NCBI GenBank assembly: GCA_945861615.1
Contig: CAMAVH010000004.1
Span: 1-52,782, forward strand
Source: Rhizobium sp. Q54
Lineage (GTDB): Bacteria > Pseudomonadota > Alphaproteobacteria > SMXQ01
Reading direction: 5' to 3'
Length of the DNA: 52,782 bases
Shown one piece after another: positions 3,795 to 7,040 of the stretch. The translations under genes and the position numbers were made by a program. Positions within the stretch are counted from its first letter, which is position 1, and every line of letters begins with the position of its first letter. The notes below the pieces were generated by a model that did not search any database, was not told the origin of the DNA, and saw only the letters and a list, made by a program, of their open reading frames with translations.

Positions 3795-4619
3795 ATGAGA
3801 TTGGCCCTCTTCGTCGTCGCCATGTCTTGCGCGCTCGGCAGCCTCTCCGGGGCCGCCCATGCGAAAGACGTGCTGCGCATCGGCGGCACCGGCATGGGAT
3901 TGCGCGCCATGGAGCGTCTCGGCGAGCAGTTGAGCGGCTCCGGCGCCGATGTCGCTGTTCGTATGTTGCCAAGCCTGGGCAGTTCGGGCGGCATCAACGC
4001 TCTTCTTGGCGGCGCGATCGACATCGCGCTGACGGCGCGTCCGATCACGCCGGCCGAACGGGACAAAGGCCTGGCGCAAGCCGCCTGCATGACCACGGCG
4101 CTGGTGTTCGCCACGCCTAAGGCCGCTTCCCCGGCGATAGACGACGCCATCACCAGCGCGCAGTTGCCGGCGCTGTTTACCGATCCTCGGCCGCTGTGGG
4201 CAGATGGTACGCCGATGAAGGTCATCCTGCGTTCTCCGGCGGGATCGGAAGTGCCCTATCTGATCGGAAAGATTCCGGCGATGGCGGCGGCCTTCGACTT
4301 GGCCTACAAGCGCGCCGGCATGCCGATCGGCATGACCGACCAGGAGAACGTCGATCTCGCGATGAAGATACGAGGCTCGTTGGCGATCACGACCTTGTTG
4401 CAAATCCGCGCGGAAAACATCGCCCTGCGACCATTGCGTTTCGATGGCGTCGAACCGACCGCGGCGACGTCGGTCGACGGTCGCTATCCGTTGCCGCTGC
4501 AGATGTGCCTATTCGTAACCGAGGCGCCCGCGCCCGGGGCAGTGCGATTCGTCGCCCATTTGAAAACGCAAAGAGGCACGGCGCTCCTGCGGAGCTTCGG
4601 CGCCGCGTTGAGCAAGTAG
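3795..4619 (+). CDS. Periplasmic substrate-binding protein, PstS-like (PBP2 fold)
   Basis: Signal peptide ending AHA; LRIGGTG and [24 protein letters not shown] motifs resemble PstS-family binding proteins. Confidence 0.75.
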
Positions 4620-4632
4620 CAGGGGAAAAAAG

Positions 4633-6009
4633 ATGAACGAGTTTGCCAAACTCGACAGCGTCTTGCGCAAGTTCGCGCTGATTCTGGGCATCGTGGCGGG
4701 CCTCGCCGTGCCGGCAGGATTCGGTGTTGCCGACTATGCCGGCCGGACAAATATGTTGCATCATCAGGCCGAGGATGCGGCGGAGCGCGTCGCGCAATAT
4801 GCCTATGTCTCCGGCGAAACCTGGCATTACAACCGGCAGCGCCTCGCCGATTTGATGCAGTTTTCACGGCACAACGACGCGCCGACCGAGAAGGTTCTGG
4901 AAAATAAAACAGGCCAAATCCTCATCGCGCTCGGCGGCGTCATCGAGCAGCCGGGCCTGACGGCGCGGGCGCCGATCGTCGTCAGCGACGAGACGATCGG
5001 TCATATCTCGCTGACGACGAGCGCGCGGCCTTTCCTGGCGGGCCTCGCGGGGTTCATTCTCGCCGGCCTCGTGTTCGGCTTTATGGTCTATGGCTGCGTC
5101 CATCATCTACCGTCTCGCGCGTTGCGCCGAGTCCTCAAGGACCTGATCGATACGCAAAACGACTTGCGCGATCAGGTCGGCAAGACCAGCAAGGCCTTGG
5201 CCTTCGCCGAAATGGAACAGCATCGCGCCGAGGAAGCAAATCGCGCGAAATCCGAATTTCTCGCCAACATGAGCCATGAGTTGCGTACGCCGCTCAACGC
5301 CATCATCGGCTTCTCGGGCATTATGGAATCCGGCCTCCGGGGGCCGCTCAATGATCAATATGCCGAGTACAACCGGCATATCAGCCAGAGCGGCCAGAAC
5401 CTTCTGCGCATCATCAACGACATCCTCGACATCGCCAAGATCGATGCCGGCCAATTGCAGGCGGAAGCCGAGACTCTCGATGCGGCAAGCGTGGTGGAAA
5501 GCTGCGTCGGCCTGTTGCGCCCGCAAGCCGAGGGGTCAAATATCGCGCTCCGCTATCAGCAGCCGGTCCGCATGGATTGCCGTGTGATCGCCGATCCGCG
5601 TCGGATGAAGCAGGCCTTGCTGCATCTCATGTCGAATGCCGTCAAATTCACGGCGTCCGGGGGGCAGGTTTCCCTGATGATGGCGGCGCGCAAGCCGGGC
5701 ATGATCGACGTGGTGATCGAAGATACCGGCATTGGCATGACGGCGGAGCAGATCGCCGTGGCCTTCCAGCCTTTCCGCCAGGCCGACGGTTCGCTGGCAC
5801 GCAAATACGAAGGCACCGGCCTGGGTCTTGCCCTGGCCAAGCGGCTGACGGAATTGCAGGGCGGCGAGCTCATTCTCGAAAGCGTTTTTGGCGCTGGCAC
5901 CAAAGTCACCTTGCGCTTGCCGGCGGCCGATCCAGCGCAGATCCATGTGCTTCCAGCGAAGAAACGGCGCTTCGGCCGCGTCTGGCCGAGCGGCGCCGCA
6001 GTGGCCTAG
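4633..6009 (+). CDS. Membrane sensor histidine kinase (HisKA + HATPase_c), no receiver domain
   Basis: Two TM segments flanking a periplasmic region; H-box [23 protein letters not shown]; SNAVKFT, DTGIGM, GTGLGL boxes. Confidence 0.93.
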
Positions 6010-6015
6010 CGCCGA

Positions 6016-6199
6016 TAAAGAAAGCCGCCGTTCGGCGAACGGCGGCTTTTAGTGAGGCGTGGCGGGCGATCCAGGACCGGACCTTCTGCGGTTTTCCCCC
6101 ATCAGCGCCACAGCGGGACCGGCTGGTCCTGTATCGCCCGCATCGTCGATTGCCCCTCGCCTGGCGGAGAGGACGACCGCCAGAGGCGCAATCGAGTCT
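6016..6199 (-). ncRNA. Candidate sigma54-dependent small RNA (~185 nt)
   Basis: Begins 12 nt after a consensus -24/-12 promoter. Tiled by hairpin 6146-6195 (loop UCGUCCUCU), hairpin 6062-6141 and terminator 6021-6049. No convincing ORF. Confidence 0.6.
6017..6050. terminator. Bidirectional intrinsic terminator between the kinase gene (+) and the candidate sRNA (-)
   Basis: AAAG-AAAGCCGCCGTT-CGGCG-AACGGCGGCTTTT; T-runs on both strands. Confidence 0.8.
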
Positions 6200-6209
6200 C
6201 CCTGAGCAG

Positions 6210-6226
6210 AGCAACCGTCGTGCCAA
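6210..6226 (-). promoter_or_regulatory. sigma54 (-24/-12) promoter
   Basis: Minus strand reads TTGGCACG-ACGG-TTGCT, an exact match to TGGCACG-N4-TTGC(W); intergenic; A-tract at 6259-6269 just upstream. Confidence 0.8.
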
Positions 6227-6353
6227 CTAGGCGCTGCGGTAAGTGTCGGAAAATTCGCTAAATTTTTTTGCGCGGTGGGAACGCCGCCGGGCGCGGCAGC
6301 GAAATCGGGCAGCGCTGCTCATTTCGCATGCAACGGAAGAACATGCGGCGGGT

Positions 6354-7040
6354 TCAGCGCGGCGCGACGCTGTTGCGTTCCTGGATCGCGCGCTCCATGT
6401 CGTCGAGACCGAGATCGACGATCCCCAGCAGGGACAGCAACAGAAGCGCGCCGAAGGCGAAGATGACGGCGCCGGAGATGCGGCCGATCCACAGCATGCC
6501 GCGATCGGTGACGCGGCCGTGGAACAGCGCGGCGACCGTCGTCAAGGCGAACCACCAGGCGCTGGCGCCGGCGAGCACGCCGACCGTGAGCACGACGCCG
6601 AGGCGCGGATGGTCGGCGATATGCGGGATGTTGATCGCCGCGAAGATCGCCGCGAAGGAGATCACCGTCGTCGGGTTGGTCAGCGTGACGAAAAAGGCGG
6701 AGATGAAATCGCTCAGCAGCTTTTCGCGGTCGCGCGTCGCCGGGGCTGGCGTGCGGCGCGCCAGCATGGCGCGCAGGCCGATGAGGCAGAGCATCGCGCC
6801 GCCGCCGCCGCGCACCCAATCGTTATGGTCGATCAGCGGCGCCATGAGGAAGCCGATGCCGAAGGCGGCGATGGCGCCGTAGATGGCGTCGGCGAGGGCG
6901 GCGCCGAGGCCGGAGACGTAGCCGGCGAGCTTGCCCTGCGCGATCGCGCGATGGATGCACATCACGGCGACGGGGCCGACCGGCGCGGCGATGACCACGC
7001 CGACGAACAGGCCCTTCCAAAACAGCGTGGTGACATCCAT
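6354..7040 (-). CDS. LysE/RhtB family translocator
   Basis: N-terminal 'GVVIAAPVGPVAVMCI', 'GLGAALADAIY', 'TLTNPTTVI'; about six TM helices. Confidence 0.88.
   Translation of the reverse strand: MDVTTLFWKGLFVGVVIAAPVGPVAVMCIHRAIAQGKLAGYVSGLGAALADAIYGAIAAFGIGFLMAPLIDHNDWVRGGGGAMLCLIGLRAMLARRTPAPATRDREKLLSDFISAFFVTLTNPTTVISFAAIFAAINIPHIADHPRLGVVLTVGVLAGASAWWFALTTVAALFHGRVTDRGMLWIGRISGAVIFAFGALLLLSLLGIVDLGLDDMERAIQERNSVAPR

Follow-up and report, generated by a model that had tools for sequence, protein, structure and literature searches.

What does a perfect sigma-54 promoter drive when it points into an interval that holds no gene? The question is raised by the minus strand of contig CAMAVH010000004.1 (assembly GCA_945861615.1, Rhizobium sp. 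Q54), of which a stretch of 52,782 nucleotides (nt), hereafter the window, was analyzed. An earlier note, made from the sequence alone, had proposed that an unannotated small RNA (sRNA) starts at this promoter, folds into three helices and exposes an anti-Shine-Dalgarno-like loop. We predict an RNA of ~183 nt, running from ~6199 to ~6016 on the minus strand, and consider it very probably the product of a real, previously uncatalogued and independent non-coding RNA gene. Our best explanation goes further and describes an sRNA that is driven by NtrC and sigma-54 and acts by pairing through its loop; taken as a whole, it falls slightly short of an even chance of being right.

The candidate promoter matches the sigma-54 consensus at 12/12 specified positions (arrangement TGGCAC-N5-TTGC). 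The place of its -12 GC puts the predicted +1 near 6199, and the site, orientation and start given in the earlier note are confirmed. On the RNA's own strand, the interval between the flanking LysE-type exporter gene and histidine kinase gene holds no gene. The strict pattern TGGCACG-N4-TTGCW occurs at four sites in the 2.98-Mb genome (GC 0.646), with ~0.8 expected from base composition. Six copies of the RNA were aligned, four from genomes and two from metagenome contigs (L046 and L047). All six keep the promoter; one has TGGCAT, a common variant of the TGGCAC element, and the spacer varies at one position. A consensus scan of positions 5900-6500 found no sigma-70-like promoter. The genome contains a single rpoN gene (Sigma54_DBD match, 233.9 bits). 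Judging from these features, the predicted RNA gene is likely to be sigma-54 dependent. Sigma-54 needs an enhancer-binding activator, as the note had stated; the genome encodes, in addition to rpoN, activators that bear the GAFTGA motif, and an activator-type site within ~80-150 bp of the promoter is present as two conserved upstream dyads.

The genus is represented by six genomes (G000-G005, with G000 the window's own), which together with 25 genomes of other genera make up a family set of 31. BLAST against 61 related genomes returned full-length homologs of the candidate (84-86% identity) in three further genomes of the genus (G001, G002, and G005); in G003 and G004 the terminator alone was matched. 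The two metagenome copies were added by a gapped pattern scan of metagenome contigs. A covariance model of the six copies (R1) matches once in every carrier genome (G000, G001, G002, and G005), at 146-177 bits. Over the family set it finds nothing in G003 or G004 and no convincing match in the genomes of other genera, where a match in G013 (E 0.049, 26 bits) is treated as noise. The exact 19-nt loop pattern occurs at 24 loci in genome contigs, three of which are the known same-genus genomes. The other 21 were rejected as homologs: BLAST matched only the short pattern, and the two loci inspected (L020 and L031) are coding sequence. The RNA is restricted to one genus, in a lineage of uncultured, Rhodospirillales-like soil Alphaproteobacteria. 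Within the genus, G004 is the nearest relative of G000, and the G002 assembly is 99% complete in 20 contigs.

At gathering scores, Rfam reports one tRNA in the whole window and nothing else. A permissive scan of 5500-6900 gives as its best matches (E 0.079-10) unrelated microRNA and sRNA models that match generic hairpins. By gathering score the RNA belongs to no Rfam family, including alpha-r14/NfeR1, AbcR, Qrr, GlmY/GlmZ, and NrsZ, and its description as unannotated holds.

The fold is the second line of evidence. A 184-nt stretch has a minimum free energy of -102 kcal/mol (z = -5.62), and 0/200 dinucleotide shuffles fold as well. The three helices of the earlier note, including a terminator with a U-run, all form as described: stem-loop 1 (SL1), stem-loop 2 (SL2), and the terminator. 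The SL1 loop lies inside a 19-nt block that is invariant in 6/6 copies, and the stems are variable. Across the alignment, 96.7% of the pair cells hold standard pairs, compared with 34-48% after shifting the partners by 1 to 3 columns. Three pairs are altered on both sides, all in the lower helix of SL2 (helix 3), and nine are switched to or from G-U. The covariation score is equalled by 1/500 shuffles, a favorable outcome for the structure within six sequences of one genus. In SL1, helix 1 is 91% paired (three wobble changes, no compensatory pair) and helix 2 is 96.7% paired; in SL2, helix 4 is 100% paired with four wobble changes, and G005 has matching 1-nt deletions on both SL2 arms. The support from structural conservation is real but thin. 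Because the enhancer, promoter, hairpins, and terminator are all conserved in the six copies, an independent structured RNA gene is supported.

The transcript might instead be a messenger for a small protein, encoded by a 13-codon open reading frame (ORF), which the earlier note had kept as a weaker alternative, or by a 17-codon frame inside SL2. Both are open in the window. The ATG of the first is present in 3/6 aligned copies, and deletions interrupt the second in two copies, 2 nt long in G005 and 4 nt long in G001; 1-, 2-, and 4-nt indels shift the frames. Neither ORF has a ribosome-binding site, and both are buried in stems. The region lacks coding potential. We reject the small-protein reading outright because of the non-conserved ATG and the frame-breaking indels, and leave it only the slimmest of chances.

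Could the hairpins belong to the exporter gene? The LysE gene is directly upstream of the site in 7/7 related loci, and the RNA module always lies between the LysE stop codon and that gene's terminator. G003 and G004 have the same terminator ~35 nt past the LysE stop, without the RNA. Since the terminator there follows LysE directly, the ~300-bp module, which comprises the enhancer, promoter, and both hairpins, has been cleanly inserted or deleted. In this alternative, the hairpins would be a 3′ untranslated region (3′-UTR) element of the LysE mRNA that affects stability or processing or gives rise to a UTR-derived RNA, and the sigma-54 site would contribute little. Neither the sequence nor the consensus scan reveals a terminator downstream of the LysE stop (6354) and ahead of the RNA; any read-through transcript must therefore include the RNA, and the module is always in this single place. 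However, a perfect sigma-54 promoter and enhancer, unneeded by a passive UTR, are kept in 6/6 copies, and in G003 and G004 the LysE gene and the terminator are retained although the module is absent. We regard a mere 3′-UTR element as very improbable. A second, processed route to the RNA through LysE read-through is possible. The features of the locus are listed in Table 1.

Table 1. Features of the predicted RNA gene and its surroundings (positions in the window).
Feature	Position	Strand	Remarks
LysE-type exporter gene	6354-7040	minus	Pfam LysE, E 6.7e-22; upstream of the RNA
Distal enhancer dyad, TGC-N11-GCA	6332..6316 (17 bp)	minus	centered at ~-125 from the predicted start
Proximal imperfect enhancer dyad, here TGC-N11-GCC	6311..6295 (17 bp)	minus	centered at ~-104
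Near-palindrome formed by both dyads jointly	6327..6299 (29 bp)	minus	
A-tract between enhancer and promoter	6269..6263	minus	possibly a bend or IHF region
Sigma-54 promoter	6225..6210	minus	-24 GG at 6224-6223, -12 GC at 6212-6211
SL1	6195-6146	minus	fold and alignment; 9-nt CU-rich loop at 6176-6168
SL2	~6145-6058	minus	fold; long, with internal loops and a G-rich apical region
Intrinsic terminator	hairpin 6049-6021, U-run to ~6016	minus	bidirectional; fold and consensus scan (detected on both strands)
Histidine kinase gene	4633-6009	plus	convergent on the RNA; the terminator also serves this gene

The kinase gene was considered as a partner of the RNA and rejected: it adjoins in 3/7 related loci, among them that of G004, where the RNA is absent. 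A related-locus search with this kinase gave only two distant relatives. It is an orphan HisKA/HATPase protein with no adjoining response regulator, and a gene for a PBP_like_2 periplasmic binding protein (3795-4619, plus strand) directly precedes it.

Which protein would activate the promoter? The distal dyad is the sole TGC-N11-GCA within 230 nt upstream of the RNA promoter. In 6/6 copies its outer triplets and inner A/T-rich block are invariant and the four positions after TGC vary. The proximal dyad, 21 bp away center to center, is also kept in 6/6 copies; a run of at least five A between enhancer and promoter is kept in 5/6 and shortened in G001. Among 25 sigma-54-like promoters inspected, only those of the RNA and of glnK have TGC-N11-GCA ~90-110 nt upstream, and the density of this pattern genome-wide is 0.21 per kb. 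The glnK dyad, with an A/T-rich center, aligns in all six genus genomes, and visual inspection shows another such dyad upstream of glnB. In Sinorhizobium meliloti, the nfeR1 promoter has its NtrC site, TGC-N11-GCA with an A/T-rich center, at -101 to -116 (PMC10746234).

The flagellar hook-operon promoter and a promoter on contig C84 share a different motif, GGCA-AAAAC-TGC. It is found at the hook operon in 3/3 genomes aligned and at the C84 promoter in 6/6, including G003 and G004, and we take it to resemble the Caulobacter ftr element. Upstream of the RNA this motif is absent, the GCA and TGC triplets being 4 nt apart, not 5. On balance, the RNA enhancer looks NtrC-type, unlike the hook motif. 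Searches with the full palindrome, its half-sites, and a four-copy matrix gave no second site near any of 40 sigma-54-like promoters scored. Two look-alikes of the palindrome were discarded: the one on contig C40 is a terminator hairpin, and the one on contig C9 overlaps a stop codon.

Some of the genome's best sigma-54 promoters (C2:66325, C7:4435, C19:16263, C34:4525, C9:34525, and C71:8054) lie ahead of genes for TctC/Bug-type periplasmic binding proteins. None of these promoters has a TGC-N11-GCA dyad, and in most genomes of the genus NtrC and FlbD were the only competent activators found.

Five genes in G000 encode a sigma-54 activator domain (PF00158). In their translations, GAFTGA is present in NtrC, an FlbD-like protein, and a PAS-domain activator, and missing from NtrX and a fifth response regulator. 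The FlbD-like gene lies within a fliF-fliG-fliN-flbD-flhA cluster, and the closest named relatives of its protein are from Rhodospirillales such as Oceanibaculum, Elstera, and Lacibacterium (61-72% identity). G001 and G005 have NtrC, NtrX, and FlbD, G002 has these three and a paralog without GAFTGA, and only NtrC and NtrX were found in G003 and G004. Within the genus, the PAS activator is confined to G000. Since NtrC and FlbD are the GAFTGA-bearing paralogs common to the four carriers, the activator must be one of the two, unless its gene is missing from all assemblies. From the motifs and their placement, NtrC has about an even chance of being the activator and FlbD is an unlikely but credible candidate, with any other activator taking what is left after these two shares. 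The earlier note had offered nitrogen, flagellar or stress regulation without choosing. That open choice among three is not kept: the activator is narrowed to NtrC or FlbD, with a lean toward nitrogen, and a nitrogen-regulated sRNA is moderately favored.

If FlbD were the activator, the same RNA gene would be a member of the middle-class flagellar regulon and would tune motility genes, as FlmE (CJnc230) does in Campylobacter. The flbD gene sits among flagellar genes, it is found in 4/4 RNA carriers and 0/2 non-carriers, and an A-tract lies ~50-60 nt upstream of both the RNA promoter and the hook promoter. Precedent exists as well in an RpoN-dependent flagellar sRNA of C. jejuni with an anti-Shine-Dalgarno motif (PMC11187230). 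However, we judge the co-occurrence unreliable and set it aside as evidence, because the flagellar core cluster is probably unassembled in G003 and G004: both contain flagellin genes, yet neither fliF nor fliG was found in them, and in G003 a contig end cuts flhA off at the very point where flbD would come next. The likely FlbD enhancer motif is the one that is absent upstream of the RNA, and the starts of flbD, fliF, and flhA pair with the loop at background. The flagellar version is improbable, and NtrC remains the preferred activator.

Other observations concern the same activators and their possible sites. The PAS-PAS activator found only in G000 (C13:32779-34692) has a good sigma-54 site just upstream of its start that points away from it (C13:32655, minus strand); the two may be a recently acquired activator-target pair. 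The C84 promoter with the hook-type motif (~10739) precedes a gene for a 376-amino acid Pro/Ala-rich protein without a Pfam family (G000:C84:9569-10699, minus strand). Promoter and enhancer motif are conserved in all six genus genomes, and the product may be a flagellar or polar protein that has so far escaped recognition. In the regions preceding the three flagellin genes, the scan flagged no sigma-54 site of at least 9/12. Two of these three regions (C30:2600-2700 and C92:9150-9200) contain TTAA-N7-TTAA-like, CtrA-box-like sequences by eye, which together with the lack of sigma-54 sites suggests that only the hook class is sigma-54/FlbD-dependent here. The region next to the C84 promoter also contains a ~90-bp repeat with two GC-rich hairpins (L089/L090, G000:C84:10846-10934), which occurs in both orientations and numbers 30 matches in G000, 62 in G002, 83 in G003, 39 in G001, nine in G005, and five in G004. 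It looks like an intergenic repeat of the REP/MITE type.

How might the RNA act? We infer a series of steps in which sigma-54 RNA polymerase would bind the perfect -24/-12 promoter and be activated by an enhancer-binding ATPase, most likely NtrC, at the two 17-bp dyads (~-125 and ~-104). With NtrC as the likeliest activator, the RNA would be made under nitrogen limitation. It would fold into two hairpins and the terminator, with SL1 displaying the invariant CU-rich loop. The loop most probably would pair with purine-rich ribosome-binding regions and lower translation, and Hfq would probably be bound at the terminator tail. The genome contains an hfq gene (110.8 bits) and the predicted RNA has a U-tailed terminator; together with the invariant CU-rich loop, these are compatible with an Hfq-type sRNA that base-pairs with purine-rich ribosome-binding sites and so masks them. 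From loop, tail and gene content, action by pairing through the loop comes close to an even chance.

Genome-wide duplexes with the 13-nt loop were scanned in one whole genome (G000), a crude search. The top duplex sites at ribosome-binding sites precede three glyoxalase-fold genes and genes for a Rieske oxygenase, an amidohydrolase, a Transgly_assoc protein, an NMT1-like binding protein, and PhaR. Random windows put the 5% tail for pairing at mRNA starts at -16.1 and the 1% tail at -18.6. The starts of ntrB, ntrC, ntrX, glnK, amtB, glnA, rpoN, flbD, fliF, flhA, and LysE stay at background, short of the 5% tail; those of ntrY (-17.6) and glnB (-16.5) exceed it, and none reaches the 1% tail. The best non-self duplex match, on contig C104, was rejected because it is antisense to a dnaA-like gene start, so that the mRNA has the loop sequence itself and not its complement. 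At that start (G000:C104:3185-3206, identified by eye), a 12-nt stretch is identical to the loop, probably by chance. The idea of an anti-Shine-Dalgarno loop survives in part: the loop is invariant and fits a seed, but its best ribosome-binding-site matches are unconserved in the other three carriers. Target prediction, which the earlier note had pointed to as a check, yielded no conserved target among the three top sites tested.

The missing target leaves room for an RNA that mainly binds or titrates a protein or another RNA, as a sponge or decoy, with the conserved SL2 as its functional part. SL2 is long, both of its arms are conserved well beyond pairing needs, and no conserved mRNA target for the loop was found, in a target search that was crude and covered one whole genome. 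No known protein-binding motif is recognized (for example, the loops have no GGA), and conservation is tightest in the SL1 loop, as is usual for a pairing seed. We consider a sponge or decoy distinctly improbable, and continue to prefer an sRNA that pairs through the SL1 loop.

Several results weigh against an NtrC-activated, loop-pairing sRNA and are best taken together. On the side of structure, SL1 has mismatches and is without compensatory pairs, all three of which fall in a single SL2 helix; G001 is without the three outer SL1 pairs, because its predicted start sits closer to the stem; and the covariation support rests on those few sequences from one genus. For expression, a search of sequencing runs listed no RNA run that holds the locus, and the one run examined has a single 232-nt contig of a related strain over 6012-6129, which is uninformative on transcription. 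At the enhancer, the inner positions of the RNA dyads differ from those of glnK, and the full 29-bp palindrome, which occurs nowhere else in the genome, defines no regulon and could be the site of some other DNA-binding protein. The dyad is missing from most of the remaining sigma-54-like promoters, many of which precede TctC/Bug-type binding proteins, so the NtrC motif in this lineage is poorly defined. As to targets, the three top sites tested keep their extended complementarity only in G000 and G004, of which G004 is without the RNA; G001, G002, and G005 do not retain it, no conserved target was found, and the mRNAs of nitrogen and flagellar regulators are mostly at background pairing. Finally, G003 and G004 have NtrC but no such RNA, which makes the RNA dispensable for the nitrogen response.

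A still more specific proposal is that an NtrC/sigma-54-activated, trans-acting alphaproteobacterial sRNA was born recently as a complete module inserted between a stop codon and a pre-existing terminator; we put this forward tentatively, as possible but more doubtful than not. If true, it would show a new riboregulator joining an old regulon by borrowing a terminator. How the RNA is distributed among close relatives also provides a dated case of gain or loss of an sRNA gene. With only two possible activators, the locus would be an easy system for the post-transcriptional extension of nitrogen or flagellar signaling in soil Rhodospirillales-like bacteria. Given that no member of the lineage is in culture and that the family is very small, any practical impact is modest.

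Among the nearest functional analogues is NrsZ of Pseudomonas aeruginosa, which is reportedly NtrC- and sigma-54-dependent, induced by nitrogen limitation, base-pairing, and processed from repeated modules. The RNA described here resembles NrsZ in having a gene of its own, a sigma-54 promoter and, upstream of it, a site that looks NtrC-type. NrsZ is gammaproteobacterial and made of repeated modules, whereas this RNA has two unlike hairpins and no sequence or Rfam similarity to it.

Qrr RNAs are likewise said to be sigma-54-dependent sRNAs of Gammaproteobacteria, with LuxO as activator. The glmY gene adjoins GlrK/GlrR, and GlrR is its known activator. In the Gammaproteobacteria, such RNAs are key nodes of quorum sensing (Qrr), cell-wall sugar supply (GlmY/GlmZ), and nitrogen and motility (NrsZ). 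GlmY and GlmZ are described as sigma-54-dependent sRNAs of Gammaproteobacteria in a published study (PMC3045617). The RNA here shares with Qrr and GlmY/GlmZ an sRNA gene under a sigma-54 promoter, with an upstream activator site dedicated to it that has few or no other copies in the genome; it differs in that no activator gene adjoins it, and it has no Rfam similarity to them.

FlmE (CJnc230) of C. jejuni is RpoN-dependent and has an anti-Shine-Dalgarno stretch, and it is processed from the flgE mRNA, its own promoter being RpoD-type (PMC11187230). The two RNAs are alike in their position at the 3′ terminus of a protein-coding gene, with read-through and an own promoter both possible as sources. 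They differ in that FlmE is in a flagellar locus and in another phylum-level lineage, whereas the RNA here follows an exporter gene.

A literature search that did not extend to supplements found no demonstrated sigma-54-dependent sRNA in Alphaproteobacteria; Met2624 of Methylorubrum has a sigma-54 promoter that is software-predicted only. By sequence and by model, the RNA is a member of none of NrsZ, Qrr, GlmY/GlmZ, NfeR1, or FlmE, and we rate it as a further representative of a familiar kind of regulator.

Another near analogue is NfeR1/alpha-r14 of the alpha-rhizobia, a nitrogen-linked, trans-acting sRNA with anti-Shine-Dalgarno loops, which has a sigma-70 promoter, is activated by LsrB and repressed by NtrC, and carries the identical motif CCUCCUCCC in three hairpin loops (PMC10746234). 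Both RNAs are alphaproteobacterial and composed of hairpins with a CU-rich loop, and NfeR1 too has TGC-N11-GCA ~100-115 nt upstream. Fold and alignment of the RNA here do not show three hairpins with CCUCCUCCC; it has one CU-rich loop of a different sequence, a G-rich apex in SL2, and a sigma-54 promoter. If our explanation is true, it would be the mirror image of the sigma-70-driven, NtrC-repressed NfeR1, the one well-studied nitrogen sRNA of the class.

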